This document shows, one piece after another, positions 2,086-17,170 of a stretch of DNA of 64,000 nt (position 1 is the first letter of the stretch; each line of letters opens with the position of its first letter). The DNA is from Actinomycetes bacterium (GTDB lineage Bacteria > Actinomycetota > Actinomycetes > JAHEKZ01). Made by a program: the position numbers and the translations under genes. Where the stretch lies: assembly GCA_024644345.1 (NCBI GenBank), contig JAHELE010000001.1, positions 18,659-82,658 of the forward strand. The letters run 5' to 3'. The notes below the pieces were generated by a model. That model saw nothing but the letters and a program-made list of their open reading frames with translations. It was not told where the DNA came from and ran no database searches.

Positions 2086-3015
2086 TCACGACGAACGGTG
2101 GCGCGGCACCGCCATCCGCGGCCCGCGTCTCGGTGCAGACACCCCCGACATCTCAAGCAGGCGCTGCACCCGGTAGCGATGCCCGGCATAGGGCTGCAGC
2201 AGTTCACTCATGCGGTCATCGTCGCCGCGTTGGCCAGTGAGCCACCAGCAGAGATCTTTGGCCACGTGGAAGTCACCGAAGGACACCGCATCGGGGTCAC
2301 CGTGGGCTCGCTGACGTACCTCCGCCGACGTCCAGACTCCGACACCGGGGAGGGCGCGCAGGACTCGGTCGGCGTCTGAGCCGGTGAGCTCAGCCGTCCG
2401 ATCAATCGCAGCTGCGGCGGCGGCGACGGTGCGCAGCGTGCGGGCGCGGTGCGGTGTGAGCCCGGCCCGGTGGAAGTCGGCGTCGGTGATGTCGCGCCAG
2501 ACCTTCGGAGAGGGCACCACGTTCATCCCCTCTGGAGCCGGGCCCGGCGCCCGCTCACCAAAGCGGCCGACCAGAACCTGCCAAGCACGCCACGCCTCAC
2601 GCCCGGTCACCTTCTGCTCGAACACGGCCGTCAGGCACGCCTCCAACGGACGCCGGGTGCGCATGATCCGCCAACCGCCTGCCCTGCGCCAGGCCTCAGC
2701 CACCTGTGGGTGAGCCGGCTCGAACCCCGCCGGGTCGTCGTCGGCCCCCAGAAGTGACGGGATGCCGTCACACAGCCAGCGCGCACCAGGGCCCCAGCCG
2801 GTCCCCTGAACCTGCCCATCGGCGGCCCGCACCTCCAGTCGAAGCGTGCCCGGTCCTTCCGGGGTGGACACCGCCCACCAGGCAGTGCGTCCCCCGCCGG
2901 CAGGATGCGGCCCGAAGCGAAACGACCGATGACGCGGACCGCGGCTCAGCGGGCCGAGGACGGCCACCAGGTCGACCGGGTAGCTAGGCGCCCACGTGCG
3001 CTCGACCACGAGCAC
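2086..3015 (-). CDS. HhH-GPD DNA glycosylase, AlkA-like 3-methyladenine DNA glycosylase II
   Basis: HhH-GPD motif with a catalytic Asp is present (LPGVGVWTSAEVRQRAHGDPDAVSFGDFHVAKDL). Its GTG start abuts the manC stop (TGAGTG). Confidence 0.6.
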   Translation of the reverse strand: MLVVERTWAPSYPVDLVAVLGPLSRGPRHRSFRFGPHPAGGGRTAWWAVSTPEGPGTLRLEVRAADGQVQGTGWGPGARWLCDGIPSLLGADDDPAGFEPAHPQVAEAWRRAGGWRIMRTRRPLEACLTAVFEQKVTGREAWRAWQVLVGRFGERAPGPAPEGMNVVPSPKVWRDITDADFHRAGLTPHRARTLRTVAAAAAAIDRTAELTGSDADRVLRALPGVGVWTSAEVRQRAHGDPDAVSFGDFHVAKDLCWWLTGQRGDDDRMSELLQPYAGHRYRVQRLLEMSGVSAPRRGPRMAVPRHRSS

Positions 3016-4050
3016 TCAGGTCGTCAACCCCAGTCGCGATCCACCTGGCAGGTGCGTCCCCGGACTCACCGTCGTCGAGTCGCCGAGCACCGAGTCGACC
3101 ACCACCGCGCCTGCACCAACCGAGGCGTTCGCTCCGATCACGCTGCGAGTGACGGTCGCACCCGCACCGACTGTGGCTCCCGACATCACGATCGACGCAT
3201 CAACAACTGCCCCTGGGCCTAGCACGGCGCCGGACGCGACGGCCGACCCACCGAAGACCTCGACGTCGTCAGACGCCATCTCAGGGTGGCCGAACCAGGC
3301 CGGTCCGCCCGCCTGCAGATAGGCAGCCGACGGCGCAACACCGAGCACAACGTCGGCCGAACATCGCACCAGTGCCTCGGGCGTTCCGACATCGCACCAG
3401 TAGGCCGTCTCTTTCCACGCCCGCACGTCTCGTCCGGCCGCCAGCAGTCCCGGAAAGGTCTCCCGTTCCACCGACACCACCTCGCCGGCCGGGATGGCAT
3501 CGATCACCGATCGCCGGAACACGTAGGCCCCCGCATTCACCCACGACGTCACGGGGTGGTCCATCTTCTCCAGGAACGCCGTGACGCGGCCCTCCGCGTC
3601 AGTAGGTACGCAGCCATACGCCCGGGCATCGGCAACCTCCACCAGGTGCAGGGTGACGTCGGCATCCACCTCTTGGTGGAACGCAATCTGACCCCCGAGG
3701 TCGTGACCGGAGAGGACGTCGCCGTTGAGGATCACCACCGGATCGTCCGATCCGGATGTCAGGCCCCGAGCCGCGTTCCGGATCGCCCCGCCCGTACCAA
3801 GGGGGTGATCCTCATGCACGTACGTCAGCTGCAGCCCGACAGGCGACCCGTCACCGAAGGTCTCGGTGAAGATCTCTGAGCGGTACGACGTCGCCAGCAC
3901 CACGTGTTCGACACCAGCGTGACGCAGAGCGGCCAGCTGGTGGGCCAAGAAGGGCACCCCTGCGACCGGAAGCAGCGGTTTGGGCGTCGTCAGGGTCAGC
4001 GGACGCAGTCGGGTGCCTTGGCCGCCAACCAGCAGTACCGCTTCGCGCAT
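3016..4050 (-). CDS. manC: mannose-1-phosphate guanylyltransferase (GDP-mannose pyrophosphorylase)
   Basis: N-terminal nucleotidyltransferase motif (LVGGQGTRLRPLTLTTPKPLLPV) and a C-terminal left-handed beta-helix hexapeptide repeat region. Position matches Mtb Rv3264c. Confidence 0.8.
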   Translation of the reverse strand: MREAVLLVGGQGTRLRPLTLTTPKPLLPVAGVPFLAHQLAALRHAGVEHVVLATSYRSEIFTETFGDGSPVGLQLTYVHEDHPLGTGGAIRNAARGLTSGSDDPVVILNGDVLSGHDLGGQIAFHQEVDADVTLHLVEVADARAYGCVPTDAEGRVTAFLEKMDHPVTSWVNAGAYVFRRSVIDAIPAGEVVSVERETFPGLLAAGRDVRAWKETAYWCDVGTPEALVRCSADVVLGVAPSAAYLQAGGPAWFGHPEMASDDVEVFGGSAVASGAVLGPGAVVDASIVMSGATVGAGATVTRSVIGANASVGAGAVVVDSVLGDSTTVSPGTHLPGGSRLGLTT

Positions 4051-4083: not shown

Positions 4084-5181
4084 TCAGGAGTACCAGCCGA
4101 CGACCCGGAACGAGACGGCGGCAGCGCTTCCCTTCGCAGTCACCGTGATCTTGCCGTCCGCACCGACCGGCACCACCACCAACGTGCGGTGGGTGCCCTT
4201 CTTGTCGAACGCGAGCAACGGTCGAGGGGTCTTGGCGGACCCGGCCGGAAGCACCGTCAGGTATCCGCTCGCACCGTCGCCCCGGGCAATCGCCTGGACG
4301 ATCACCGACGAGGCAGCTCCGGGAACCTCGGTGTTCTTGCCGCGCACCCGAACCGTGCGCGACTCACCGGCCGACAGCGTGCCGGACGAGCCTGACTCCA
4401 GGGCGGTGAAGCCCTTGATGCTGCGGTATCGACCGGATCGGTCCCCACGCTGCGACCGGAACCAGCCGAGCACGTCAACCTGGACCTGCGCCTTCCCCTT
4501 GCTGAGTCGAAGGGGCAGTCGGCCATCGGCGTCCAGACGAGCCACCGTCGTTCCTGTGCGCCACGCACCCGCGGGCGCTCGCACCGTCAGCCCGAGTGTT
4601 CTCGGCGTGCCCCGTGGTGCGACGCTCAGGGAAGCAGTCTCAGTCGGTTTCACCAGACCGATGCTCACCACCACCGTGCGCGCGTTGTTGGGGACGCCCT
4701 CACGTCCGGCTATCCGGACGTTGCGTGTCTCGCCGGCCTGCAGTCGACCTTTGCTCCATCCGAAGCCGGTCGCGCTGTTGACCAGGCGACGGGCAGCAAC
4801 CGAACGGAGCACTTTGGTCCCCACCCCCGACGATGTGTAGTAGCCGACCAGGTCGACGTCGAGACCCGCCAGTTTCGTGGTGGCACCCAAACAGATCTTG
4901 CCGTTGGACCCAGCTCGGACGGTCGCCAGTCCGGCGTCAGCTCCCCCTGCCGAGTACGTGGCGACGACCTGTTCACGATCGGGTGCACCGCACGGCCACA
5001 CCTTGACGCGTCCGCCGTCGCGGGCGCTCGCGGCGGTGACCCGGACCGCGACCGCTCGCGTTCCTTGCTCTGGCGCACGCTTCGACCCGACGACCGACAC
5101 CGCCACCTGCCCACCGCGGGTGTCAGAAGCCGTCTCTCCTCTGTCGACGATGCGCCTGGCACTGAGCGACCGGAAGTACGA
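4084..5181 (-). repeat. three tandem ~110-aa C-terminal repeat modules inside the SpoIID-like CDS, same family as the amidase repeats
   Basis: Three protein-level units each carry R(R/S)(I/L)V(D/N)...G(V/E)P..A..V...(Y/W)P.G...V(D/V)(L/V)(V/L)G(Y/W)(Y/F). The same module occurs at 6829-7896. Confidence 0.5.
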
Positions 5182-6768
5182 GTACGAAGAGATCGGGACG
5201 AAGGCAGGGGTCGCTGTCGCCGGTCCTCGACCCGAGCGATAGACCGGGGCCACCCGCGCCCGGTACTCCTTCCCGTTTGTCAGCCCCTTGACCCGGACCT
5301 TCCGCGCAGTGGAGCCCACTCGGTAGGTCTGGTCGGTGGACGAGACGGTGATGCGGTACGCCTTCACGCGTCGGTCGGTGTTCGGCGCTCCCCACCGCAC
5401 CAACCCCGAACGGTCACCGCGCTCCACACGGACGTTTCTTGCCGGAGCCGTGATGCCACCGTCGACGTTGGTCACCGTCCACCAGGTGCTCTTCAGGCCC
5501 GCGGCCCAGCGGAAGCTGTCGGCGGACACAGTCACGGTGCTCTTGCTGCCCACGAGGCCGACGGAGAGAACCCGGCCACCCCACGGACCATTGCCGTCGC
5601 GACCCAGGACCTTGAGTTTCTTCACAGTGCCGATCTGCGGCCAGGCGCTCTCGATCCTGGTGGAGCTGACCGAGGTCGACCAGCTGTGCCCCCAGTTCGC
5701 CGCCCCGGTCACGACACCGTCGTACGGGTCCGGCTGAGCCACGAGGTAGGGGCGGCTTCCTGCAACCGAGTACCCACCGTTCGCCGAGCTGAACATGGCG
5801 AACACCGGCTGGCCGGCATGGCGGAGGTACTGATGGGCGGTGGCCCTGACGGCGGCCACCTCCACATTGCTCTCGCTGGATATCGGCCCGTACACCTGGC
5901 AGGACGTGGTGTCACAGATGTCATAGGCGCGGTGCGCCGCTCGCGCGTTCACCTGTGCGAGGAGTGCGTAGCTGCGGGCCGCCACGGCCTGCGCTCTCAG
6001 GGCTGCGTCGGTCCACGAGCTCGGCACCTCCGACGACACGACCGAGCGCAGGTAGTCCTCGAGAAGCAGCGAGTTGACCGCCAGCACCGACGAGGAGCTG
6101 GGCTTGACGTCGAGAAAACCGTGGTAGGTCCGCTTGGCTCCGGTCGACGTCTGGACGCCGATCCGGCTCTTGCCGACCGCGGAGCCGGTTCGCCACCGGA
6201 TCGACCCACTGAGGCCGCCGACCACCTTGACCGCCTTGACTGACGAGACCGCCCATACCGCGAGCCCACCGCTGCCCTTGACGGAGCGGAACGTCGAGAC
6301 CGGCTCGCCACCCGCCTTCGACGGAAGGGAGACGGAGTTGCCACGGTGACTGAGCGACAGACCCGACTTGGCGGGGACGACGACACCGGTGCCCTGCGGA
6401 GTGCTCCGCACGATGCCGGAGAGACCGACCTTGATCTGTCGGTCGGCGCCCACCTCAGCCAGGCGCGTGCCGGGGTAGTAGAACTTCACGATCTGGCGGT
6501 AGCTCTTGCCGAGTCGACCCATCCCCTCGGCACCGAACTGCGACATCCCGATGCCGTGTCCGTAGCCCAGCCCGGACAGCTGGAACACGCCGCTGGAGGG
6601 TCGTGCGTAGGCCTCGCCGGACGACCCGGCTCGGGCCGGTGCGGAGATGAGAGAGAGCAGACCCCCCACAAGCCCGGCAACCGCTGCAGCCGCCAGCACC
6701 CTTCGGAGGTGTCGCTGGCTGAGTCGGTCGGTGGGTCCGTGATTCACCACACCCGTCACACCAGTCAC
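4084..6768 (-). CDS. secreted SpoIID/LytB-domain protein with FN3 domain and three C-terminal ~110-aa repeats
   Basis: Signal peptide (RRVLAAAAVAGLVGGLLSLISAPARA). SpoIID hallmarks are present: GYGHGIGMSQFGA...IVKFYYPG, ALRAQAVAARSYAL, FAMFSSANGGYS, DSFRWAAG. Then an FN3-like segment (RNVRVERGDRSGLVRWGAPNTDRRVKAYRITVSS), then three repeats ending ...VDLVGYY / ...VDVLGWF / ...FRVVGWYS. Confidence 0.75.
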   Translation of the reverse strand: MTGVTGVVNHGPTDRLSQRHLRRVLAAAAVAGLVGGLLSLISAPARAGSSGEAYARPSSGVFQLSGLGYGHGIGMSQFGAEGMGRLGKSYRQIVKFYYPGTRLAEVGADRQIKVGLSGIVRSTPQGTGVVVPAKSGLSLSHRGNSVSLPSKAGGEPVSTFRSVKGSGGLAVWAVSSVKAVKVVGGLSGSIRWRTGSAVGKSRIGVQTSTGAKRTYHGFLDVKPSSSSVLAVNSLLLEDYLRSVVSSEVPSSWTDAALRAQAVAARSYALLAQVNARAAHRAYDICDTTSCQVYGPISSESNVEVAAVRATAHQYLRHAGQPVFAMFSSANGGYSVAGSRPYLVAQPDPYDGVVTGAANWGHSWSTSVSSTRIESAWPQIGTVKKLKVLGRDGNGPWGGRVLSVGLVGSKSTVTVSADSFRWAAGLKSTWWTVTNVDGGITAPARNVRVERGDRSGLVRWGAPNTDRRVKAYRITVSSTDQTYRVGSTARKVRVKGLTNGKEYRARVAPVYRSGRGPATATPAFVPISSYSYFRSLSARRIVDRGETASDTRGGQVAVSVVGSKRAPEQGTRAVAVRVTAASARDGGRVKVWPCGAPDREQVVATYSAGGADAGLATVRAGSNGKICLGATTKLAGLDVDLVGYYTSSGVGTKVLRSVAARRLVNSATGFGWSKGRLQAGETRNVRIAGREGVPNNARTVVVSIGLVKPTETASLSVAPRGTPRTLGLTVRAPAGAWRTGTTVARLDADGRLPLRLSKGKAQVQVDVLGWFRSQRGDRSGRYRSIKGFTALESGSSGTLSAGESRTVRVRGKNTEVPGAASSVIVQAIARGDGASGYLTVLPAGSAKTPRPLLAFDKKGTHRTLVVVPVGADGKITVTAKGSAAAVSFRVVGWYS

Positions 6769-6828
6769 AGAGTGCTCTCTCGGCAGAAGGCCGAGAAAAC
6801 CTAAGCAACTAGCGGCTGACCTGCGGTT

Positions 6829-7896
6829 TTACCGAATCCAGCCCACCACGACGACGTTGGGACGAACCGTCGCGTCGCGCGCGCGCAGACGGAGGTCGCC
6901 GCCTTTGCCGATCCGCACGACGGCAACAGTCTCCCGGGACGTGCGGGACGGGACGACCAGATCTGCCGACCCAGGCTCAGACGCCCCCCGCGGCCACATC
7001 ATGAGTCGACTCTGCTTCTTGCCTGCGCTCCCAGTGAGCTGGACGAGAACGGCGCGGGCATCGCTCGGGACACCGGCGCGTCCGCGGACGCTGACAGTCC
7101 TGGCGTCGCCTTTGCCGAGGGTCGCCCCCTTCTTGAGCAACGCGCGCGGAGCGACCGGGTGAACCGAGCCCGGTCCACCGGCCGTCACGTACCCGGCGAC
7201 GTCGAACGCCACCGAGCCGGCTCGATCCGCCGCCACCCGGATGCCGCCGCCGGCACCTAGCGGCACAACCACCTGAGAGACGCTGCCGCTTCCGCGGGGA
7301 CGTCGCCAGCTCGGGACCGCCGGCTTCTCGGCTCCACCCGGCCATGCCCATACCGCACCCACTGACGACTTCGCCGTGCGTCGAATCGCGAGCACAACGG
7401 CCTTGGCGTCGTCAGGCACGCCGGCACGCCCCGCCACATCGACCCCCACTGGTGTCGGGCCGACCGACAGCGGGCTGGCCACCCCCAACGCAGTGCGGCG
7501 CACCGGTGTGAGCTCACCCCCGGCACCATCGGTGGTGATGTAGCCGGCTACCGAGGCCTTCAGCGCAACCGCCCCTGCGGAGTTCCGGAAGCGAACCCCG
7601 CCACCGGGGCCCACCCGGACGACCACAAAGGCACGGGCCGTGCCGCTCTGCTTCAGCGAGACGGCTTGCGCGCCGGCGCCGGTGACCCGGTCGGGGCTGA
7701 CGGTGATCCGCGTCCCCGCGCTGGCACACACCGCTTCCACCGACAACGCGACCGCGGTGACGCCGCTCTGCGGCACACCCGCTCGACCCAGCACCTGGAC
7801 GTCCAGACGTCGGCCTGGCCCCAGCAGGAGACGACCCTTGATGCCCTTGCCGGACGCCGTCGACAGCAGGGTGCGGGCACGCTGGGGCACGTAGGT
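6829..7896 (-). repeat. three tandem ~110-aa C-terminal repeat modules inside the amidase CDS
   Basis: Units contain ...GRAGVP(Q/D/S)(S/D)A(K/R)AV(A/V)L...(W/V)(P/R)..G.....V(A/V)(G/V)(Y/W)(I/V). Confidence 0.5.
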
Positions 7897-9468
7897 CCCG
7901 GCCGGTGCCTTGTTCAGAGACGCCGTGGTCGAGGTCGACGACCGCCCGCCGACTCCCACGAGGACCGATCGCTCGAACGGCCAGGCACTGCTTCCGTTCC
8001 CCGAGCTGGTCAACGTCATGCGATACCGACCGGGCGAGGCGAGTTGGCCTTTCTCGTCGCGTCCGCGCCACACCGCCCGGATTGGATCACCGGGTGCCGC
8101 CGTGCCGGTGAGGCGCCGAACCAGGTCGCCGCTGCAGAAGTCGCGCACCGTCAGCGCCCAGTTCTGCTGTTGAGTGACCCGGGCCTCGGCGGCAATCGCG
8201 ACATCAGACCCCGCCGGCACACTGCGGGTCGACAGGGTCGGCTCGATCAGACTTGATCCCATGTAGCCCTTGGCGAGCCGTCGGATCTTGGGCAGTCGCT
8301 GGTAGAGGTTGTCCCCTGGGCAGGCAGTCAGCTGCGAGTCCCGATGCCCCGAGATCACCTTGAACCTGACCTTGCGGCCCGGGGAGTACTTCGACGAGCC
8401 CACCTCCGCCGTCAGCACCTTCTTGCCGAACGGGTCACGGTGATAGCGCGACAACCGGTACGCGAGAACCTTGGCGATTCCGCGCACCATGGCGTCCGAT
8501 GCGGGAGCCGTCTGGAAGTTCCCCATCGCCACCACTGCGAGTGTGTCGGTGTTGAACCCACCCGATGCCGCTGACCGCACCGGCTTGGTGATGCTGCCCG
8601 CTCGACCCTCGTAGATGGTCCCGTACTTGTCGACCAGGAAGTTGTAGCCCATGTCGGCGTACTTCAGCGTGTTCACGTAGTAGCTGTAGAGCCCGCGCAC
8701 GACGGCTGGACTCTCGCTACGCGAGTAGTTGTTGCTGCCAGCGGTGTGGTGGACGAAGGCCACCTTGAAGGTGTCGCTGTTCTCCAGATTCTTGTCACGC
8801 AGTGACTCGTCGGCGCCCCACTCGGCCCGTGTGACGATGGGCGGTCGCTCGGTGGCGGCGGTAGCTGTTGAGCCACTCCATCCGCCGGTCACCGCCGCGT
8901 CGGCGTCCGAGGTACCCGGCTCGATCAGGTCGACCCGGACGTCGGATGGTTGGGCGTCGCCCACCGCGTCGACACGGACCTGCACAGCATCGGAGTCACC
9001 AGCCCAGTAGGGAACAGTGCCGAAGCGCCCGTTGGGTGAGGGCTCAGTGCCACTGTCAACGCTCGTTGGCACCTCGAACCAGTCGGTCCACGTACCGTCG
9101 GTGCGCGTCCGGGCAGTGACCAGGACCGTTCCGTCGCCGCTCGGGGCGGCGCCCTTCCACGTGACACCCAGCATCCGGAAGGCGTCGGTCTCCAGGGGCT
9201 CCGACACCACGACGGGGGGTCGAGCAGCGGCCTTGGCTGCCGACGACCGGCTGGTGATCTTGCGCCAAATCGGCTCCAACGTGTCGGGGACTGGCGCAGC
9301 GGCCAGTGCCGCGCGATCAACTCCGACTAGCGGCACGGACTGCACCGCGGCGGCGACCGGGTGCGGGGCCGCGAGCGACACGGTGAATGCCGGTGCCACG
9401 ACAACGGTGGGGATGACAAGAACGGCGGCGAACAACGCACCAGACGGTGCCGGACGGGGGAAACGCAC
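6829..9468 (-). CDS. N-acetylmuramoyl-L-alanine amidase (PGRP/Amidase_2 domain) with three C-terminal ~110-aa repeats
   Basis: Amidase_2/PGRP zinc-site motifs are present (TRAEWGADESLR...FVHHTAGSNNY...VISGHRDSQLTACPGDNLY). Signal/TM segment (ALFAAVLVIPTVVVAPAFTVSLAA). The GTG start at 9468 is preceded by GGAGAGG. The ORF-track start at 9528 is an alternative. C-terminal repeats end ...AGYITTDG / ...AGYVTAGG / ...VVVGWIR. Confidence 0.8.
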   Translation of the reverse strand: MRFPRPAPSGALFAAVLVIPTVVVAPAFTVSLAAPHPVAAAVQSVPLVGVDRAALAAAPVPDTLEPIWRKITSRSSAAKAAARPPVVVSEPLETDAFRMLGVTWKGAAPSGDGTVLVTARTRTDGTWTDWFEVPTSVDSGTEPSPNGRFGTVPYWAGDSDAVQVRVDAVGDAQPSDVRVDLIEPGTSDADAAVTGGWSGSTATAATERPPIVTRAEWGADESLRDKNLENSDTFKVAFVHHTAGSNNYSRSESPAVVRGLYSYYVNTLKYADMGYNFLVDKYGTIYEGRAGSITKPVRSAASGGFNTDTLAVVAMGNFQTAPASDAMVRGIAKVLAYRLSRYHRDPFGKKVLTAEVGSSKYSPGRKVRFKVISGHRDSQLTACPGDNLYQRLPKIRRLAKGYMGSSLIEPTLSTRSVPAGSDVAIAAEARVTQQQNWALTVRDFCSGDLVRRLTGTAAPGDPIRAVWRGRDEKGQLASPGRYRMTLTSSGNGSSAWPFERSVLVGVGGRSSTSTTASLNKAPAGTYVPQRARTLLSTASGKGIKGRLLLGPGRRLDVQVLGRAGVPQSGVTAVALSVEAVCASAGTRITVSPDRVTGAGAQAVSLKQSGTARAFVVVRVGPGGGVRFRNSAGAVALKASVAGYITTDGAGGELTPVRRTALGVASPLSVGPTPVGVDVAGRAGVPDDAKAVVLAIRRTAKSSVGAVWAWPGGAEKPAVPSWRRPRGSGSVSQVVVPLGAGGGIRVAADRAGSVAFDVAGYVTAGGPGSVHPVAPRALLKKGATLGKGDARTVSVRGRAGVPSDARAVLVQLTGSAGKKQSRLMMWPRGASEPGSADLVVPSRTSRETVAVVRIGKGGDLRLRARDATVRPNVVVVGWIR

Positions 9469-9575
9469 AGTAAGCCTCTCCGGGGGAAGTCGGTGGTCCG
9501 ATGGGAACAAGGCGTTCCCTGGTGCCATCGGCCGGGTGCAGACCCGGCTGGAGACGAGTCCCTACCCTAGCTCGC

Positions 9576-10343
9576 GTGACCTCCACCACTGAGCACCTGA
9601 CGCGCGCGTTGTCGACCGACCCGTCCGGTCCGCGGCTGACGTTCTACGACGACCTCACCGGTGAGCGCGTCGAGCTGTCGACCACCACCCTGGCCAACTG
9701 GGTGGCCAAGACCACCAACCTGCTCGTTCTGGAGTGCGGAGTGGGGCCGGGATCGCACGTGGCGCTCCACCTGCCCCGCCATTGGACCACCGCGATCTGG
9801 GCGCTGGCCGGTGACGCCGTAGGCGCCCACGTGAGCCTCGTCGCCAACGAGGTGAGCGATGCGAGCCCAGCGATCGACGCGGTGGGGTCGGTCGACGTCG
9901 CCGTGATCGGTCCGGACTCTGTGCTCGAACCGCCAGCCGCTGACGAGATCTTTGCCGTGTCGTTGGCCCCCCTGGGGGCCCCGTTCACGACGCCATTGCC
10001 CACGTTCGTGCGCGACTTCACCGTGGAGGTCCGCACCATGCCCGACCAGCTCAGCGGTCCGGTCGGTCCCCCCGGAACCGTCGGTGAGTTGGCCGAGCAG
10101 CGCGCCCGGGCGATGGGCCTTGGCCCATCGGACCGGGTGGCCGCGTTGGGCGACCTGGGCGGGACGACGGCACTGATCGACGAGTGGCTGGCCCCGTTGG
10201 CAGTCGGGGCAAGCGTGGTGTGGGTTCGGAACCCCGACCCCGTGACATGCGTCTCACGGTGGGGGTCCGAACGGGTGACGGCGGTGGCCAGAACCCGGCC
10301 GGGCGGTGTTTCTGTCCCTGACTCGATTCGGATCCTGCCCTAG
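9576..10343 (+). CDS. actinobacterial conserved hypothetical protein, TIGR03089-like (acyl-activating-enzyme-like fold)
   Basis: Sequence HVALHLPRHWTTAIWALAGDAVGAHV. It sits beside the LCP/CpsA gene, as Rv3268 does beside Rv3267. The start is uncertain (GTG at 9576, or the ORF-track start at 9501). Confidence 0.55.
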   Translation: MTSTTEHLTRALSTDPSGPRLTFYDDLTGERVELSTTTLANWVAKTTNLLVLECGVGPGSHVALHLPRHWTTAIWALAGDAVGAHVSLVANEVSDASPAIDAVGSVDVAVIGPDSVLEPPAADEIFAVSLAPLGAPFTTPLPTFVRDFTVEVRTMPDQLSGPVGPPGTVGELAEQRARAMGLGPSDRVAALGDLGGTTALIDEWLAPLAVGASVVWVRNPDPVTCVSRWGSERVTAVARTRPGGVSVPDSIRILP

Positions 10344-10408: not shown

Positions 10409-11848
10409 ATGACGCACACCGAACGGCCGGAGTCGGCTGCCTCGGGGCACCCCCGGATGCGCCGGACGCTCAGGTGGCTCGCCGTGATCGTGGTGCTGCT
10501 GCTGGTTGCCGGCGGGGCCACCGGCTTCTACCTCTACCAGCGTTTTGAGGGGAACATCGGCCAGGTCGACGTCTTCACGACCGACATCCTGGGCACCGAC
10601 CGACCGACCAAGGCAGAGCCGGTCGACAACCAGGCGGAACCCCTGAACATCCTGGTCATGGGCTCGGACACCAGAGCCGGGCAGGGCAGGGGCTACGGAC
10701 CTGAGGCAGAGATCACCGGCGCGCGGTCCGACACCACGCTGCTCGTCCACCTCCCGGCCGACCGCCAAAGCGCTCTGGTCGTGAGCATCCCTCGCGACAC
10801 CGTGCTCGACGTTCCGTCGTGCAAGACGCAGAACGGACCATCCACCCCGTACACGGACCGCTTCAACTCTGCGTTCTCCACCGGCGGGCCAGGCTGCACG
10901 ATCAAGACCGTGGAGCAGAACACCGGCGTCTTCATCGACCACTTCGTCATCGTGGACTTCTCCGGGTTCAACGACATCGTCGACGCCCTCGGTGGAGTCG
11001 ATGTGTGCCTTCCCGAGGCAGTTGTCGAGCCCAAGAGCGGGCTGGACCTTCCCGCCGGCACCAGCACCGTGACGGGCGACCAGGCGTTGGCGTTCGTGCG
11101 GGTGCGCGCGATCGGAACCGGAAGTGACATCGACCGGATCGATCGGCAGCAGGCCTTTCTGTCGTCCTTGATCAACAAGGCCAAGAGCTCCGGCACACTC
11201 CTCAACCCCGTCAAACTCGTGCGTTTTCTAGAGGCGGCGACCAAGTCGCTGACGACCGACCCCGCGCTGGCCAACCTCAACGAGATGCGGCGGATCGCCC
11301 AAGACGTCCGAGGGATCCCGCCCAAGGACATCACCTTCGTCACCACTCCGTGGCTGGTGAACCCCGACGACCCCAACACCGTTGTCTGGAACGAGAAGAA
11401 GACCGACGCCCTCTGGTCGGCCATCAGCAACGACGAGACCTATCCCCCCGCTCCCCCTGAGCCGACCACCATCGACGGCAAGCCACTGACCGTGCTCCCG
11501 AGCGCGGTTCCGCTACGGGTGCTGAACGGCAGTGGCGTGAGCGGGGCGGCCACCACAGCGGCTACCGAGCTCAAGGCGAAGGGCTACTCGACGATCGGGG
11601 TTGGCGATGCCGAAAGCCAGAACTTCATCTCGACGGTGATCCGCTACGACGAGGCCGGCGCTGACGCCGCCCGCACCGTGGCGGCATCCATCCCCGGGGC
11701 CGCTCGGGTGCTTCGGCCGGGGCTGGGGACGACGGTCGAGGTCGTGGTGGGTGATGACTGGCCAGGCGCCACACGGGTGGTCGTCAAGAAGCCCCCGAGC
11801 GTTACCGTCCGGCAAGCGACCGACAACATCTGCAAGATTCCCGGCTAA
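10409..11848 (+). CDS. LytR-CpsA-Psr (LCP) family cell-wall polymer ligase with C-terminal LytR_C domain
   Basis: N-terminal TM segment (LAVIVVLLLVAGGATGFYLY). LCP core motifs (LNILVMGSDTRAG...RSDTTLLVHL...SIPRDT...GFNDIVDALGGVDV). GAGGA RBS before the ATG. Confidence 0.85.
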   Translation: MTHTERPESAASGHPRMRRTLRWLAVIVVLLLVAGGATGFYLYQRFEGNIGQVDVFTTDILGTDRPTKAEPVDNQAEPLNILVMGSDTRAGQGRGYGPEAEITGARSDTTLLVHLPADRQSALVVSIPRDTVLDVPSCKTQNGPSTPYTDRFNSAFSTGGPGCTIKTVEQNTGVFIDHFVIVDFSGFNDIVDALGGVDVCLPEAVVEPKSGLDLPAGTSTVTGDQALAFVRVRAIGTGSDIDRIDRQQAFLSSLINKAKSSGTLLNPVKLVRFLEAATKSLTTDPALANLNEMRRIAQDVRGIPPKDITFVTTPWLVNPDDPNTVVWNEKKTDALWSAISNDETYPPAPPEPTTIDGKPLTVLPSAVPLRVLNGSGVSGAATTAATELKAKGYSTIGVGDAESQNFISTVIRYDEAGADAARTVAASIPGAARVLRPGLGTTVEVVVGDDWPGATRVVVKKPPSVTVRQATDNICKIPG

Positions 11849-13653
11849 CGGTCGGCGAAACGTCCCGAGCTCTCGGCTGCGTAGATCACCCCGAGAACGA
11901 CAGAACCGATCCCCAGCCCCCAGGCGAGCTCTCCGACTGCGGCGAGCAACACCACCAGAACAACTCGCCCGAAGGCACCCAGGCCGACAATTCCCAGCCA
12001 GGTCGGTGGGGAGGCGCCAAGGACGCGTTGTCTCGTCGCGATGTCGAGACGGTGAAAGGCCAGCACCGCGATCCACGCAATCGTGATCGCAAGGGCTGCC
12101 GGCTCGACAACTGCGGCCGCAGCCAGCACCACCGTCGACTCCACGACCCAGGTGAGCGGGGGAACCCAGGCCGCCACACGCGAGCTCAGAGCCCGACGCA
12201 GTGCCGACAGATGCGGATCCTGTTGGGAGACCAGGCGGGCCAGCGGACCAGGGTCGGCCAGCTCGAAGAGCTGCCGCCGAGCAGCGGCAAGCGGCCGCGG
12301 GGCACCCACCAGCACGAGGCAGACCACAGCACTCAGGCCCGCCAGCACCGCCAGCACCGCCAACAGCGACGTCGGCGGGAGCAGGATCAGGGCGACGACC
12401 GTGAGGACGGCTCCGTCACCACGAGAGATGCTGAACGGGAGCCACTCGGGAACGGGCCGCCCCTCTGGCGGTGGGGTGGCAGGAAGCAGCGGCTCGTCGA
12501 GGCGGTCCAGCGGCAACCGGATGGGTGTCGGGCTGCCTCCCCATCCACGCGCGGTGCGGCTCGCTGCCGCCGCAAGATGGGCCAGTGTCAGGAGGACCAG
12601 CACTGTCGATGCGAGCCCCCAGCGCGGCGATCCGGACTGAGCGGTACCTAGCCCGAGACCGATCACCACGGCAGCCTCGCGGATCCGGTCCGTGGTGACG
12701 TCGAACCAGGCGCCGAAAGCGGTGACGGTGCGACGTGCCCTGGCCAAGATCCCGTCGACCCGGTCAAGCAAGACGGAGATCAGCAGAAAGAACGCCGCCG
12801 TGATGGCACCCCCTCGGGTGCCCGTCGAGATCAGCAGCCCGGCCAGGAGTGCTGCTGCCACGCTCACGACGGTGGTTGCGTGAGCGCCCACACCGGCGCG
12901 CCAGGCCCACAGGGACACGACCTCTGCAGCCTGGCGGCCGCCGATTCGGTCCACGAGCCCTTGAGGCAAGCCAGCTGCAGCGTCGATCCGCACCCTGGTC
13001 TCGTGCTCGGGATCGAGCGGCATGGTTGCCGTTCCCCATGGCAGTCCCGGAGTGTCGACCGCGTGGACGGTGACCCCCGCCCGGACCGCTGCCACGACTG
13101 TCAATGGCCAGACCGGCCCCGACCAGTGCTGCTCGTCTGCCACATCTGCCATCACCCGCACTGCGCTGGCGACCGAGTCGGCATCGGCTGCGTCAACCCG
13201 CAGCAGGCCGGACCCGTTGTGCGTGGACTGACCGACGGTGTGGACCCCTGAACCGGCGCCCACCACAACGCCAGCAACCACCCGCAGAGGGGCGTCGGTG
13301 ACCGGTGGACGCGACCCCGGGTCGGCAGCATCGACCGGCACGGGGTCGACCAGCACGGCGGTGCGAGTGGCCGCTTCGACCTCCTCCACGGTGACGACCG
13401 AGCCGAGTGCCTCGGCCGCCAGCAGAAGGACCGGAGCCGGCACCCCTTCCATCGCATCAGCCACCGCTCGTACCGTGTCGGCCGTTCCGCCACGGGTGAC
13501 CACGTGGTGAGCCGCGCGCACCTCCGTGAGGGAGGGCGCAACCAGGTAGACGTCGTGGCCGCGTCCCTCGAGCTCGTCGACCCACTGCTGTGCCCGCCGT
13601 TGAGCCGCGGCGTCACCGGCGTCAGCGTCAGGTGCGACGAGCACCACTGTCAC
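11845..13653 (-). CDS. fusion protein: ~280-aa N-terminal cytoplasmic domain of unknown function plus a polytopic CDP-alcohol phosphatidyltransferase domain
   Basis: CDP-alcohol phosphotransferase signature D-G-x2-A-R...G...D...D (LLDRVDGILARARRTVTAFGAWFDVTTDRIREA). Multiple TM helices. Its start overlaps the wzt stop (ATGA) and its stop overlaps the LCP stop. Confidence 0.7.
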   Translation of the reverse strand: MTVVLVAPDADAGDAAAQRRAQQWVDELEGRGHDVYLVAPSLTEVRAAHHVVTRGGTADTVRAVADAMEGVPAPVLLLAAEALGSVVTVEEVEAATRTAVLVDPVPVDAADPGSRPPVTDAPLRVVAGVVVGAGSGVHTVGQSTHNGSGLLRVDAADADSVASAVRVMADVADEQHWSGPVWPLTVVAAVRAGVTVHAVDTPGLPWGTATMPLDPEHETRVRIDAAAGLPQGLVDRIGGRQAAEVVSLWAWRAGVGAHATTVVSVAAALLAGLLISTGTRGGAITAAFFLLISVLLDRVDGILARARRTVTAFGAWFDVTTDRIREAAVVIGLGLGTAQSGSPRWGLASTVLVLLTLAHLAAAASRTARGWGGSPTPIRLPLDRLDEPLLPATPPPEGRPVPEWLPFSISRGDGAVLTVVALILLPPTSLLAVLAVLAGLSAVVCLVLVGAPRPLAAARRQLFELADPGPLARLVSQQDPHLSALRRALSSRVAAWVPPLTWVVESTVVLAAAAVVEPAALAITIAWIAVLAFHRLDIATRQRVLGASPPTWLGIVGLGAFGRVVLVVLLAAVGELAWGLGIGSVVLGVIYAAESSGRFADR

Positions 13654-14624
13654 GTTCGGGCCTCGGGGGTGCCTGAGGTCTCAGGCAGGTCTTCACCCTC
13701 TTCGTCCAGATCATCACTGACCGGGAGCAACCCGCCCGCAGCGAGGCGCTCAGCTTCTCGACGACGCTGGCGCCGCTCGCGACGCGCCTTCTTCCGCTCG
13801 CCCTTCCACCCTGGGTGCCCCTCCATCTCCCGGTCGACGTTGTACTGCGCAAGCACCTCACCGATGTCGCCGTCAGCCTGGACCCGGCCTCGGCGCAGAT
13901 AGATCCCGCGGGTGCACAACCGCTGCAGCTGCCGCTCGCTGTGCGAGACCAGGAAGAGGGTCTTGCCTCCGGCCAGCATGGTGTCGAGCCGCTCATACGC
14001 CTTGCGCTTGAACGACCGGTCTCCGACCGAGAGCGTCTCGTCGATGATCACGGTGGGCTCGTTGAGGGAGGTGATCAGTGAGAAGGCCACTCTCGTTCTC
14101 ATACCGCTGGAGAGGTGGCGGAAGGGAGTATCGACGAAGTCGCCGACCTCGGCGAAGTTGATGATGTCGTCGAACCGCTCCTCGACCTCATCACGCAGCA
14201 TGCCGTGCAGGCCACCGACGATGTGCAGGTTGTCGCGCACGGTCAGGTCTGCCTTGAAGCCGCCGGAGATGTTGACCAGAGGCGCCACTCCGCCGACCAG
14301 CCGCACCCAGCCCTCGTCGGGGATCAGGGTGCCGGCGACCAGCTTGAGCAGGGTGCTCTTGCCCTGTCCGTTCGCCCCGATGATCCCGACCGACTCGCCC
14401 TGCGTGATCTGGAACGACACGTTCCGGAGGGCCCAGAACTCGCTCTTGGCCTTGCCTTTCTCCTCTTTGAACAGATCTGAGAGGCGCCGGTTGCGGATGC
14501 GGTTGCGCCGGAACTTGATTCCGAGCTTGTGCGCCTCGATGGCAACGGGGGCATCAACTGTGTCAGCCGAAGCCGTCGGCGGCGCTGACGAACCGGATGT
14601 GTCCACCGCCGTCGGAGCGTCCAT
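13650..14624 (-). CDS. ABC transporter ATP-binding protein, Wzt/TagH-like polysaccharide/teichoic-acid exporter ATPase
   Basis: Walker A (GIIGANGQGKSTLLKLVAG), signature motif (LSSGMRTRVAF) and Walker B (IIDETLSVGD). The ATG at 14624 overlaps the permease stop (TGATG). Charged C-terminal tail. Confidence 0.85.
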   Translation of the reverse strand: MDAPTAVDTSGSSAPPTASADTVDAPVAIEAHKLGIKFRRNRIRNRRLSDLFKEEKGKAKSEFWALRNVSFQITQGESVGIIGANGQGKSTLLKLVAGTLIPDEGWVRLVGGVAPLVNISGGFKADLTVRDNLHIVGGLHGMLRDEVEERFDDIINFAEVGDFVDTPFRHLSSGMRTRVAFSLITSLNEPTVIIDETLSVGDRSFKRKAYERLDTMLAGGKTLFLVSHSERQLQRLCTRGIYLRRGRVQADGDIGEVLAQYNVDREMEGHPGWKGERKKARRERRQRRREAERLAAGGLLPVSDDLDEEGEDLPETSGTPEART

Positions 14625-15541
14625 CAGAGCTCCTTCAGGACACGGGGTTCGAGCCGGCGGAAGAGCCACCAGCCGATCACAAAGATCAGCGCCGAGAGCA
14701 GCGCCGAGAGCGCCAGCAGCGCCGCGACGTCGGAGGTGTTGTCGGGGAAGAGCACCGCGTGGTACGTGTTCAAGATGCCCACGAGCGGGTTGAGCGCGTA
14801 GACCCAGAGCAGCGAGTCCGGCAGGTCGTTCCGGTCCAGCACCTCCGTCAGCAGACCGAGCCCATAGATGACCGGTGACAGGTAGCGGTAGAGCGTGGTG
14901 AAGACCTTCACGACTCGGTGCACGTCGGGGTAGAGCATGCAGAGCGGCGCCAGGGTCAGGGCCAGCCCGACGTTGAAGAGGAACTGGACGGCAAACGCGA
15001 GCGGGAGGATGACCAACCACCACGTCACGCCGACGGGACCGCTCTTGGGGGGGAAGATCATGAAGAACAGCACGAAGACCACGGTGATCGGCAGCGTGAA
15101 GAGGAACTCGATGAACCGCGACGAGACCGACCGCAGCACCCAGATCTCGCGCGGCAGGCTGGACGAGGTCACCAGCTTGGCGTCGTTACCGAGCAGCCGA
15201 CCGGAGTCTCCGAGCACGTGCGCCGTCCACTGGAAGGGCAGGATGCCGGTGAGGAGCCAGAGGATGTACGGCTGCTCATTGGTGGCACCACGCGAGACGA
15301 TCACGCCGAAGACGAACCAGTAGACGAGGGTCAGCAGCAACGGGTCGAGCAAGGTCCAGGCGAAGCCGAGCACCGAGTCGCTGTACCTGACCTTGAGGTC
15401 ACGGACGATGAGGATCCGGAGGATCCGCCGGTTGATCCAGATCGCGCGAGTGCGCGCCATGGCCGACGGGCGATGGGCCGGCGTGGCGGACGGGTCTGCC
15501 GGCTGGGGTGACGCTGCCGGCGCTGCAGAAGACGCACTCAT
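14624..15541 (-). CDS. ABC-2 type transporter permease, Wzm/TagG-like
   Basis: Six TM helices, ABC-2 permease signature (RDLKVRYSDSVLGFAWTLLDPLL). Translationally coupled to the ATPase gene. Confidence 0.8.
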   Translation of the reverse strand: MSASSAAPAASPQPADPSATPAHRPSAMARTRAIWINRRILRILIVRDLKVRYSDSVLGFAWTLLDPLLLTLVYWFVFGVIVSRGATNEQPYILWLLTGILPFQWTAHVLGDSGRLLGNDAKLVTSSSLPREIWVLRSVSSRFIEFLFTLPITVVFVLFFMIFPPKSGPVGVTWWLVILPLAFAVQFLFNVGLALTLAPLCMLYPDVHRVVKVFTTLYRYLSPVIYGLGLLTEVLDRNDLPDSLLWVYALNPLVGILNTYHAVLFPDNTSDVAALLALSALLSALIFVIGWWLFRRLEPRVLKEL

Positions 15542-15635: not shown

Positions 15636-15742
15636 GTCAGTGTGTGGCTCCCCTACCCTCAAGTCATCGTGCCGCGGGAACCGCAACGGCTCTCACCACG
15701 TCTTACCCGCGACCCCGACCGAGCCCAGGAGACCCACAACAG

Positions 15743-17170
15743 ATGAGCGCCGCCCTTCCCCCGGAGCTCTCACCCCGCGCAGCTGGCGGTCCGCCGTCCC
15801 CGGCCAAGCGTCGGTGGGTGACGCGGGTCACGACCGCACTCGCCGCAGTGGTGTTCCTCACGAGCACCGGTGGCTGGGTGATGGCGACGTACTACGACGT
15901 CAAGCTCGCCCGAATTCCCGGCCTGTCGGGCCTCAGCGGGGACAGCACTGGCCCCCTCACCATCTTGATCGTCGGATCGGACAGCCGCGAGGGCCTGAGC
16001 CTGGCCGAGGCCAGGAAGCTGGGGACGGGCACGGCGGCAAACAGCTCGACGGGGCAGCGGTCCGACACGATGATGCTGTTGCACATCGCCGGCGACCGGA
16101 AGAGCGCCACCGTCGTCAGCCTCCCGCGTGACTCCTACGTCACGATCCCGGCCCACACCGACAGCGCCGGCAAGAAGCAGCCTGCCAGCAAGAACAAGCT
16201 CAATGCCGCGTACGCCCTCGGCGGCGCACCGTTGCTCATCGACACCGTCAAGGCCGAGACCGGACTCACCATCGACCACTACGTCGAGGTCGGATTCGCT
16301 GGGGTCGTGAACATGGTCGATGCGCTCGGCGGGGTCGACGTCTGCGTGCCAAACGCCGTCGACGACTGGCGCAGTGGCTTGAAACTGCCGGCAGGCAAGT
16401 CGCATGTCGACGGGCTGATGGGGCTCTCGTACGTGCGAGCCCGCTACATCGACCCCACCGCAGACATCGGACGTATGCAGCGCCAGCAGCGCTTCCTCGG
16501 GTCGATGTTCCAAGAGGCGACGACCGCACAGGTGCTGCTCAACCCGGTCAAGCTCAATGCGTTCCTGGCTGCGGCGCTCGACTCGGTGACTGTCGACGAC
16601 GGCATGTCACGCGACATGCTGCTCGAGCTCGCCGGCGAGATCCAAGGCCTGACCCCGAAGGACATCCGGTTCCTCACGGTCCCCTTGTCCGACGTGAACC
16701 TGGCCACACCTGTCGGCAGCGCAGTGGAGTGGGACCAGAAGAAGGCCGCACTCGTCTTCGGCTCGATCGAGAGCGACCAACCCCTGATCAAGGAGAAGAA
16801 GGGGCCGACCGTCCAGGTGGCGCCGGCCGACATCGACGTCCAGGTGCTCAACGGCAGCGAGGTCGACGGGCTGGCCACCACCGCAAGTACTCACTTGGAC
16901 AGGGCGGGGTACACGATCGCGGCTGCCCCCGGCAACGACAAGCGCGGCGATGTGACCTCCACGATCATTAGGTACGACCCGCAGTGGAACACTTCGGCAA
17001 AGACCCTGCAGGCAGCGTTCCCCGACGCCACCCTGGAGGAGGTCTCCGGTCTTGGGTCCACCTTCCAGGTGGTCGTGGGTACCGACTACGTCAAACCATT
17101 GAAGGTTCGCGTGGCCCGCAAGGACAACAAGCTCGGATCGAGTACCGCTGCCGACAGCGTGTGCGGCTGA
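15743..17170 (+). CDS. LytR-CpsA-Psr (LCP) family protein, second paralogue, with LytR_C domain
   Basis: Motifs LTILIVGSDSREG...RSDTMMLLHI...SLPRDS...GFAGVVNMVDALGGVDV. The ATG at 15743 is in frame inside the longer track ORF that starts at 15644. Confidence 0.85.
   Translation: MSAALPPELSPRAAGGPPSPAKRRWVTRVTTALAAVVFLTSTGGWVMATYYDVKLARIPGLSGLSGDSTGPLTILIVGSDSREGLSLAEARKLGTGTAANSSTGQRSDTMMLLHIAGDRKSATVVSLPRDSYVTIPAHTDSAGKKQPASKNKLNAAYALGGAPLLIDTVKAETGLTIDHYVEVGFAGVVNMVDALGGVDVCVPNAVDDWRSGLKLPAGKSHVDGLMGLSYVRARYIDPTADIGRMQRQQRFLGSMFQEATTAQVLLNPVKLNAFLAAALDSVTVDDGMSRDMLLELAGEIQGLTPKDIRFLTVPLSDVNLATPVGSAVEWDQKKAALVFGSIESDQPLIKEKKGPTVQVAPADIDVQVLNGSEVDGLATTASTHLDRAGYTIAAAPGNDKRGDVTSTIIRYDPQWNTSAKTLQAAFPDATLEEVSGLGSTFQVVVGTDYVKPLKVRVARKDNKLGSSTAADSVCG

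Follow-up and report, generated by a model that had tools for sequence, protein, structure and literature searches.

Do two neighboring genes for putative wall hydrolases that share a tripled C-terminal repeat form a functional pair, and what is the repeat for? This question is raised by a stretch of 64,000 nt from an Actinomycetes bacterium (GTDB lineage JAHEKZ01; assembly GCA_024644345.1, contig JAHELE010000001.1, positions 18,659 to 82,658), which is called the window throughout. Two consecutive genes on its minus strand, designated B (upstream) and A (downstream), had been assigned in an earlier note, made from the sequence alone, to an Amidase_2/PGRP-type protein and a SpoIID/LytB-type protein with an fn3 domain. 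Matches in Pfam, NCBIfam, and PDB confirmed both assignments, and the interpretation given in the note held in its main lines, with some corrections. We consider it fairly probable that A and B are a pair of autolysins that act in two steps, are exported, and are retained on the wall of the organism itself. The repeat, in contrast, is a generic module and not a signature of this enzyme pair. As it is abundant and not covered by any Pfam or NCBIfam model, it is the more interesting element of the locus. The features of the two genes are as follows.

6829..9468, minus strand: gene B, predicted secreted N-acetylmuramoyl-L-alanine amidase of the Rv3811/Ami3 type (Amidase_2; orthologues with PF01510 and PF27503)
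8314..8766, minus strand: Amidase_2 (PGRP-type) catalytic domain of B, residues 255-405 (Pfam 47.7 bits, cutoff 26)
6832..7899, minus strand: triple repeat of B, units 544-670, 671-787, and 788-899 (net charge +32, pI 11.8)
4084..6768, minus strand: gene A, secreted SpoIID/LytB-domain protein of 894 aa, putative lytic transglycosylase and/or amidase enhancer
6454..6615, minus strand: segment GYGHGIGMSQFGAEGM...YYPGT of A, residues 52-105, aligning to the C-terminal end of SpoIID crystal structures
5464..6081, minus strand: SpoIID catalytic region of A, residues 230-435, with Glu247, Cys285, and Cys290
5215..5445, minus strand: fn3 domain of A, residues 442-518 (Pfam 35.1 bits, cutoff 25)
4087..5187, minus strand: triple repeat of A, units 528-650, 651-778, and 779-894 (net charge +32, pI 11.3)

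Gene B encodes a predicted amidase of the Rv3811 type

The longest open reading frame (ORF) of B spans 6829-9528 and encodes 899 aa, and the residue numbers used here refer to this ORF. The start at 9468 gives 879 aa, which fits the 879-881 aa of most close homologues. The protein consists of a signal or membrane segment, a region similar to Rv3811_N, the Amidase_2 domain, an Ig-like domain, and the triple jelly-roll module. The Ig-like domain resembles FlgD_ig, with a Pfam score below the threshold. The top PDB matches of B were animal PGRPs (E=2.6e-15), and PF27503 (Rv3811_N) and PF01510 were precomputed for its orthologues, including one with 90% identity (P0189). For Amidase_3 (PF01520), no Pfam match at E<=0.1 was obtained with A or B.

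The motifs of the zinc ligands that had been noticed in the sequence were all intact as VHHT (259), GHRD (394), and CPG (403), and GYNF (294) was present as well; the putative zinc ligands His, His (His395 in GHRD), and Cys and the catalytic Tyr were assigned by motif position and not by structural superposition. In amidases of the PGRP/T7 lysozyme type, a Cys instead of a Ser at the last position marks the catalytic members, such as T7 lysozyme and PGRP-LB.

The orthologues of B share the combination of Rv3811_N and Amidase_2 with Rv3811 of M. tuberculosis, which has been catalogued as the amidase_2 enzyme Ami3 (PMC3987819). B differs from Ami3 by the additional Ig-like domain and triple jelly-roll module and by its pairing with a SpoIID-like gene. 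No literature report of a SpoIID-like pairing was found for Rv3811.

Gene A encodes a circularly permuted SpoIID-like protein

Pfam SpoIID (PF08486) matched residues 226-316 of A with 86.6 bits (cutoff 23), and TIGR02669 (SpoIID_LytB) matched with 178.5 bits (cutoff 83.3). The sporulation SpoIID equivalog TIGR02870 was not reached (101.9 bits, cutoff 234.75), and, judged by these profile scores, A is outside that equivalog. Glu247 aligns to the Glu of 5i1t that is the catalytic Glu101 of C. difficile SpoIID, and it was invariant in 12 homologues. The surrounding motif was also invariant across the aligned homologues, although some of them have just 34% identity to A. Likewise, Cys285 and Cys290 were invariant, and they align to C140 and C146 of the zinc site of C. 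difficile SpoIID, for which the residue roles, including that of the catalytic E101, have been published (PMC6221140).

The order of the domains is not the canonical one. A starts with a signal peptide (a signal helix was predicted in the full-length model), followed by a GHG motif, a beta insert, the SpoIID catalytic region, the fn3 domain, and the triple jelly-roll module. In the canonical order, the motif G-x-GHG-x-GMSQ-x-GA is located at the C-terminal end, whereas the motif of A (63-105) precedes the catalytic region (230-435). Residues 63-105 align with residues 279-318 of 4rwr, residues 286-328 of 5i1t, and positions 296-337 of TIGR02870. Therefore, a segment that is N-terminal in A matches the C-terminal end of the solved SpoIIDs, which shows that the domain is circularly permuted. 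The GHG motif was invariant in the homologue alignment (A5). The all-beta insert between the motif and the catalytic region comprises about 125 aa (residues 106-229) and was predicted with a pLDDT of about 90. The nearest species representative for A was the metagenome-assembled genome (MAG) CAN_BIN24, with 74% identity, and close orthologues of A and B were found solely in uncultured Actinomycetes. A look-up of the exact A sequence gave no match among public records.

It has to be considered that A might be catalytically silent and act only as an allosteric enhancer or scaffold, so that the locus would encode one enzyme and one modifier. LytB (CwbA) of Bacillus subtilis sets the precedent, because it has a SpoIID domain and stimulates amidases but is listed as not hydrolyzing peptidoglycan. 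The score far under the TIGR02870 cutoff and the circular permutation of A would also agree with a silent protein. However, invariance of E247 and its motif in homologues down to 34% identity would not be expected in this case, and the same is true for the invariant GHG motif. In addition, glycan is actively cleaved by the SpoIID homologue of Waddlia chondrophila, which does not sporulate. We therefore regard a purely modifying role of A as unlikely.

The amidase and the SpoIID-like protein are probably functionally coupled

A survey of 80 actinomycete SpoIID-like loci from species-representative genomes was performed, and amidase genes were sought within 10 kb. An Rv3811-type amidase was present at this distance in 33 of the 80 loci. 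The arrangement was highly biased, with 35 of the 38 amidase hits on the same strand and 29 of the 38 upstream of the SpoIID-like gene. At 18 loci the two proteins were fused in a single ORF, and at about ten more loci the genes were adjacent. Eight of the fusions were confirmed with Pfam. Fusions are carried by, for example, Aeromicrobium and Terrabacter species. Among the more distant homologues there are fusion proteins of about 1360 aa in which Amidase_2, Rv3811_N, an Ig domain, SpoIID, fn3, and the triplet are united. In one locus (L002), the fusion occupies the same slot as the window pair, in the order LCP...LCP...fusion...manC, unk309, fbiB, cofD, whereas the pair is split in another (L001). 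Altogether, the pair or its fused form was located between manC and LCP genes in three lineages.

The adjacency and the syntenic fusion of the catalytic domains represent gene-fusion evidence for a functional link, and the two enzymes are probably coupled, as the earlier note had supposed. Published biochemistry, by analogy, fits an order in which an amidase acts before a SpoIID: C. difficile SpoIID is inactive on peptidoglycan unless an amidase has acted first (PMC6221140), and the SpoIID homologue of W. chondrophila, a Chlamydia-related bacterium, digests denuded glycans (PMC6635528).

Could A and B nevertheless be independent housekeeping hydrolases that are neighbors by chance and share a repeat merely because it is common among the secreted proteins of the organism? 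The repeat is indeed generic (see below), the triplets of A and B are only 26% identical, with no sign of recent exchange, and 47 of the 80 SpoIID-like loci had no nearby amidase. However, chance would hardly account for the 18 fused and roughly ten adjacent loci with their strong bias of strand and order, for the syntenic fusion that replaces the pair in L002, or for the fact that, in the split-pair clade, both triplets became strongly positive in parallel. A chance neighborhood is thus very improbable.

Two further observations were made in the survey. For the majority of the 80 loci as well as for the fusions, the match in tblastn started at or before the N-terminal GHG motif. In four Aeromicrobium loci (L004, L005, L016, L036) and in an unclassified Actinomycetota MAG (L023), a second Rv3811-type amidase directly follows the fusion, so that two amidase modules flank the SpoIID domain.

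Both proteins end in three jelly-roll units

The C-terminal regions of A (552-892) and B (572-897) are homologous, with 26% identity and E=5e-26, and additional weaker out-of-register matches exposed the internal repeats. With a single unit of B as query, all three units per protein were found, and the five non-self units had i-Evalues of 9e-5 to 5.5e-10. The prediction of three copies in each protein was thus correct, but the units are longer than the about 110 aa that had been estimated, namely 112-128 aa. In addition, the pairwise identity among the six units is 23-27%, and therefore the targeting regions of A and B belong to one family but are not identical, contrary to what had been stated.

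CW_binding_2, SLH, and plain Ig domains were considered as identities of the repeat and were ruled out by profile searches and by the fold. No Pfam or NCBIfam model matches the repeats of A or B, and the Pfam search for CW_binding_2 (PF04122) yielded no match in A or B at E<=0.1. The repeats were also modelled, as the earlier note had proposed. The AlphaFold2 model of B 570-899, calculated from a 21-sequence alignment and lacking the first 26 residues of unit 1, was all-beta, with a pLDDT of 89.9 and a pTM of 0.85, and the repeats of A reached a pLDDT of about 88-95 in the full-length model. The pTM of the triplet argues for one rigid body of three units, which may be a single-chain pseudo-trimer. 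The fold of the unit is a jelly-roll similar to CBM6/35/36, a similarity that was found at 9-14% sequence identity.

The closest solved fold is the fiber tip Bd2133 of Bdellovibrio bacteriovorus (PDB 8OK3/8OND), followed by carbohydrate-binding modules of glycoside hydrolases. The likeness to Bd2133 was seen for the fold of one unit. The sequence identity is only 10%, and in Bd2133 three separate chains form a homotrimer at the fiber end, whereas the window triplet has three units in one chain. At the sequence level, a comparison of the triplet profile with the PDB gave only chance-level matches, and the Foldseek search against the PDB did not retrieve a solved equivalent of the whole triplet.

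The two triplets are also unusual in their charge. Each has a net charge of +32, whereas the median net charge of canonical units is 0 and the neighboring cytoplasmic proteins have a pI of about 5. The median net charges of A orthologues (+22.5) and B orthologues (+21.5) of the same clade are also high, in contrast to more distant amidase homologues (+5.5). The positive shift common to both groups of orthologues suggests a parallel retuning toward an anionic ligand.

The triplet is a generic module of actinomycete secreted proteins

As the earlier note had suggested, a profile was built from the six units and used to search protein sequences. It recovered a very large repeat family with 21,656 representatives of 50%-identity clusters at E<=1e-3, of which 13,117 were matched at E<=1e-10. 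These numbers stem from an exhaustive search of representatives, which was used instead of a word-indexed database search with the six-repeat alignment, because the latter returned only short fragments without domain context. The architectures were quantified for the 146 best new representative matches (P0304-P0449). Three copies per protein were found in 124 cases, six in 11, nine in one, five in nine, and four in one. Successive units adjoin one another (median gap 2 aa), and the block is located at the extreme C-terminus in 86 of the 146 proteins and just behind the N-terminal signal in 45. An LPxTG motif was absent from these 146 representatives. The consensus of the unit is P.R.LDTR...GRGGVP..AVV.NVTAT...LTVWP.G..RP.ASNLN...NLV.V.VG..G.V...N..G...V..DV.GYF.

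The partner domains of 121 canonical members include RCC1, NHL, PKD, fn3, subtilases, matrixin, CHAP, Amidase_2, SpoIID, GH18, GH43, HtaA, CAP, and RHS. Most of them are not wall hydrolases but are types typical of surface and secreted proteins. The earlier note had tied the repeat to the hydrolase pair and had declared that a generic domain in unrelated proteins with no hydrolase association would speak against its proposal. This is in part what was found, and the link between the two enzymes therefore rests on the fusion of the catalytic domains and on adjacency and synteny, not on the shared repeat. The proteins with triplets are named "hypothetical protein" in the databases. In Pfam scans of the 121 canonical members, no single family occurred in more than five of about 60 proteins per batch, so that the repeat is not covered, and NCBIfam yielded nothing over the repeats of six canonical members.

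Within one protein, canonical units share about 63% identity (median), and the position-specific identity of units is weak (74 of 121 for position 1, 73 of 121 for position 2, and none for position 3). In contrast to A and B, this points to concerted evolution or repeated re-triplication.

The distribution of the triplet gives hints to its function. In homologous amidases and amidase-SpoIID fusions, it is replaced by CW_binding_2, LGFP, FG-GAP, or nothing, and this accessory slot was C-terminal in the scanned fusions. Cellulomonas fimi ATCC 484 (CP002666.1; L081 7494-12784) has two adjacent genes that both end with a triplet. One encodes a 794-aa protein similar to CarboxypepD_reg/SdrD_B and the other an Rv3811_N/Amidase_2 protein, and the two are located inside a wall-polysaccharide cluster with LCP, an ABC-2/Wzt exporter, glycosyltransferases, RmlC/RmlD, and DUF2142. 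Based on the exchanges in the accessory slot, the CBM-like fold, the cationic window copies, and the wall-polymer gene cluster, binding of the repeat to the wall or to a glycopolymer, which had already been proposed, is plausible.

Triplet proteins were also encountered in conjugation-type regions (L085 3608-6817 on the Curtobacterium plasmid pW21, and L084 6392-9575). A triplet gene of 1069 aa that is annotated as cutinase family lies two genes downstream of a TraM-recognition/T4CP gene, and another triplet gene immediately follows a Peptidase_M23 gene, with a TrwC relaxase gene a few kb away. In addition, triplet proteins are encoded on 18 Streptomyces plasmids.

The fold and the partners of the repeat raise the possibility that the pair is directed against other bacteria, either as an exported bacteriolytic weapon or as a scavenger of their walls, with the triplet as a lectin or carbohydrate-binding module for foreign glycans. 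The nearest fold belongs to a fiber tip for prey adhesion, the next ones to glycoside hydrolases, and the partners in the family include the degradative Peptidase_S8, M10, GH18, and GH43 as well as the plasmid-borne gene annotated as cutinase family. Triplet proteins also adjoin peptidoglycan hydrolases in the conjugation regions, where such hydrolases act on the wall of the recipient. The genomic context of the pair and its fusion speaks against a weapon, however, because in three lineages they are located in a conserved core locus of wall biogenesis, from manC to LCP, and the pair may be co-transcribed with manC. Moreover, relatives have the wall anchors CW_binding_2 and LGFP in the accessory position, and the LytB/LytC precedent is an autolysin. 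A role against foreign walls is therefore distinctly unlikely, and the autolysin pair on the organism's own wall remains the preferred reading.

The closest known system is the lytRABC divergon of B. subtilis

The earlier note had compared the pair with SpoIID and SpoIIP of sporulating Bacillus. This DMP system also combines a SpoIID-family domain with an amidase partner, and the catalytic Glu is retained in A. Morlot and colleagues reportedly found in 2010 that SpoIID also stimulates SpoIIP. However, B does not belong to the SpoIIP family, A scores under the cutoff of the SpoIID equivalog, no SpoIIM-like scaffold was seen adjoining the A/B pair, and the context in the window is vegetative wall biogenesis. 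Co-localization of A and B would be achieved via the repeats or via fusion and not via a membrane scaffold.

The closest known system is instead the lytRABC divergon with LytB and LytC. LytC (CwlB), the major autolysin amidase, contains three CWB repeats and an Amidase_3 domain. LytB (CwbA) carries a signal peptide and combines three CWB repeats with a SpoIID-type "amidase enhancer" domain (Lazarevic 1992 and Kuroda 1992, as cited). The genes lytB and lytC are adjacent, and lytR, an LCP gene, is divergently transcribed. Several features are common to both loci. The amidase gene and the SpoIID/LytB-domain gene are co-directional and adjacent, the products are secreted, the SpoIID-type protein works, or in the case of A would work, together with the amidase, each protein has three tandem copies of one repeat, and an LCP-family gene is divergent. 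In the window this is the gene at 10409-11848 on the plus strand, with a TIGR03089 gene in between.

The components themselves are different. B is an Amidase_2/PGRP protein of the Rv3811 type, while LytC is an Amidase_3 protein. The repeat of A and B is a C-terminal jelly-roll of about 120 aa without a CW_binding_2 match, while the repeats of LytB and LytC are N-terminal. The gene order is reversed, with the amidase first in the window locus, the SpoIID domain of A is circularly permuted and contains a beta insert, and no lytA-like gene was seen at the window locus. In summary, the window locus is a known autolysin-pair plan built from non-homologous parts.

The triplet can likewise be compared with the established anchors CWB2 (PF04122) and SLH, which bind to wall-linked secondary polymers (PMC4973711; PMC6081394). 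They are also used in threes and occupy either terminus of secreted proteins that have nothing else in common, and CW_binding_2 stands in for the triplet in homologues of the amidase and of the amidase-SpoIID fusion. In contrast, they have no sequence relationship to the triplet, the fold of which is an all-beta jelly-roll, and the CWB2 units are non-interchangeable, whereas the canonical triplet units are highly similar to one another and have only weak position identity.

A proposed two-step autolysin pair held on the own wall

The following mechanism would combine these results. B, as a zinc amidase of the PGRP/Amidase_2 fold (Ami3/Rv3811 type), would strip the stem peptides from MurNAc. 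We infer that A would act thereafter and would cut the denuded glycan as a lytic transglycosylase, stimulate the amidase in the manner of LytB/CwbA, or do both. The three tandem units of each protein would pack into a rigid body, probably a single-chain pseudo-trimer, and the triplet could generally serve the secreted proteins of actinomycetes for retention at the surface or as a lectin-like device. The cationic triplets of this lineage probably bind an anionic wall-linked glycopolymer, for the formation of which the neighboring LCP, ABC-exporter, CDP-alcohol-transferase, and manC genes would be responsible. Binding to this glycopolymer would place A and B at the same sites.

Several results weigh against this mechanism. 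LytB does not hydrolyze peptidoglycan, and thus A may be an enhancer only. More than half of the SpoIID-like loci (47 of 80) have no amidase within 10 kb. The structural neighbors of the repeat also fit a binding of foreign glycans, and the Foldseek matches of the whole triplet, to triple jelly-roll and single-chain C1q structures, had TM values of just 0.24-0.27. The conserved polar motifs of the family, DTR, NxT, and SNLN, are lost from the window copies, so that the binding site may differ or may be lost, and the units of A and B are only 23-27% identical in contrast to the median of 63% in canonical proteins. A canonical triplet (P0334) had no tblastn match in 50,697 phage genomes. Endolysins of phages frequently take up modules of this kind, and for a general wall-binding module a match would thus have been expected. 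Lastly, two randomly chosen canonical triplet proteins were not encoded in wall-polymer clusters, and the linkage to such clusters is therefore not general for the triplet family.

A more far-reaching reading is tentative, and we give it somewhat less than even chances. The triplet might be a major, so far unrecognized non-covalent wall anchor of Actinomycetota with a role like that of the SLH and CWB2 triplets of Firmicutes, and it might have been retuned to a cationic form in the clade of the window. As a part of the same reading, and just as tentatively, this anchor might be a single-chain pseudo-trimer on thousands of different surface proteins that reads out the wall glycopolymer of the respective lineage. 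The amidase-SpoIID "denude-and-cut" enzymes, split or fused, might then be a widespread class of actinomycete autolysins.

If this were true, many actinomycetes would use an autolysin design like that of Firmicutes, i.e., an amidase with a SpoIID/LytB partner, made from different parts that are joined by a tripled anchor or by gene fusion. For lineages that have received little study, it would provide a specific candidate for a system that separates cells or turns over the wall. A function that can be tested would be assigned to a very abundant domain (21,656 cluster representatives), and the annotation of many "hypothetical" actinobacterial surface proteins could be improved. The parallel cationic shift, next to genes whose product is probably an anionic wall polymer, would help in the search for the ligand.

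The pair is located in a conserved wall-biogenesis region

The genes around the pair are, in addition to cofD and fbiB, the following.

2086-3015, minus strand: basic protein of 309 aa (pI 10.4), directly downstream of manC
3016..4050, minus strand: manC-type mannose-1-phosphate guanylyltransferase (NF052502, 449.5 bits, cutoff 440)
9501..10343, plus strand: TIGR03089-family gene (203.2 bits, cutoff 85), divergent from B and upstream of the LCP gene
10409..11848, plus strand: LCP (LytR-CpsA-Psr) glycopolymer-to-peptidoglycan transferase, divergent to B and A
11845..15541, minus strand: CDP-alcohol phosphatidyltransferase-family/DUF5941 protein, TagH/Wzt-like ABC ATPase, and ABC-2 permease
15644..17170, plus strand: second LCP-family transferase

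The order is thus cofD, fbiB, 309-aa gene, manC, A, B, TIGR03089, LCP, CDP-alcohol/DUF5941, TagH/Wzt-like exporter, and second LCP, which is a conserved actinobacterial wall-biogenesis region. The slot that the earlier note had indicated, between manC and the LCP ligase, was verified by the NF052502 and LCP matches, with the TIGR03089 gene between the pair and LCP. The proposed synteny with the mycobacterial slot of wbbL1 and rmlD fits the match to the manC model and the published Rv3264c-Rv3266c (manB-wbbL1-rmlD) operon (PMC9366312). The genes at 11845..15541 are candidates for making and exporting a wall glycopolymer.

B, A, manC, and the 309-aa gene all point in one direction and are separated by successive gaps of 60, 33, and 0 nt, the second of which lies between the stop of A and the start side of manC. 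Because of these short gaps, the four genes may form one operon. Across the whole 64-kb window, no Rfam family reached the gathering score, and thus no riboswitch is present upstream of B.

The 309-aa protein had no Pfam or NCBIfam match. Its gene also follows manC in L001 and L002, and homologues are present in L057, L062, L065, and L079. The ORF at 9501-10343 looked at first sight like a spurious overlap with a weak AMP-binding match, but it turned out to be a clear TIGR03089 member. Beyond the second LCP gene, unrelated genes for purine and NAD biosynthesis follow. The longest ORFs of the ABC ATPase (13650-15023) and the ABC-2 permease (14624-15541), both on the minus strand, overlap by 400 nt. 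As the ABC_tran domain begins only at residue 199, the true start of the ATPase is probably well downstream of 15023.

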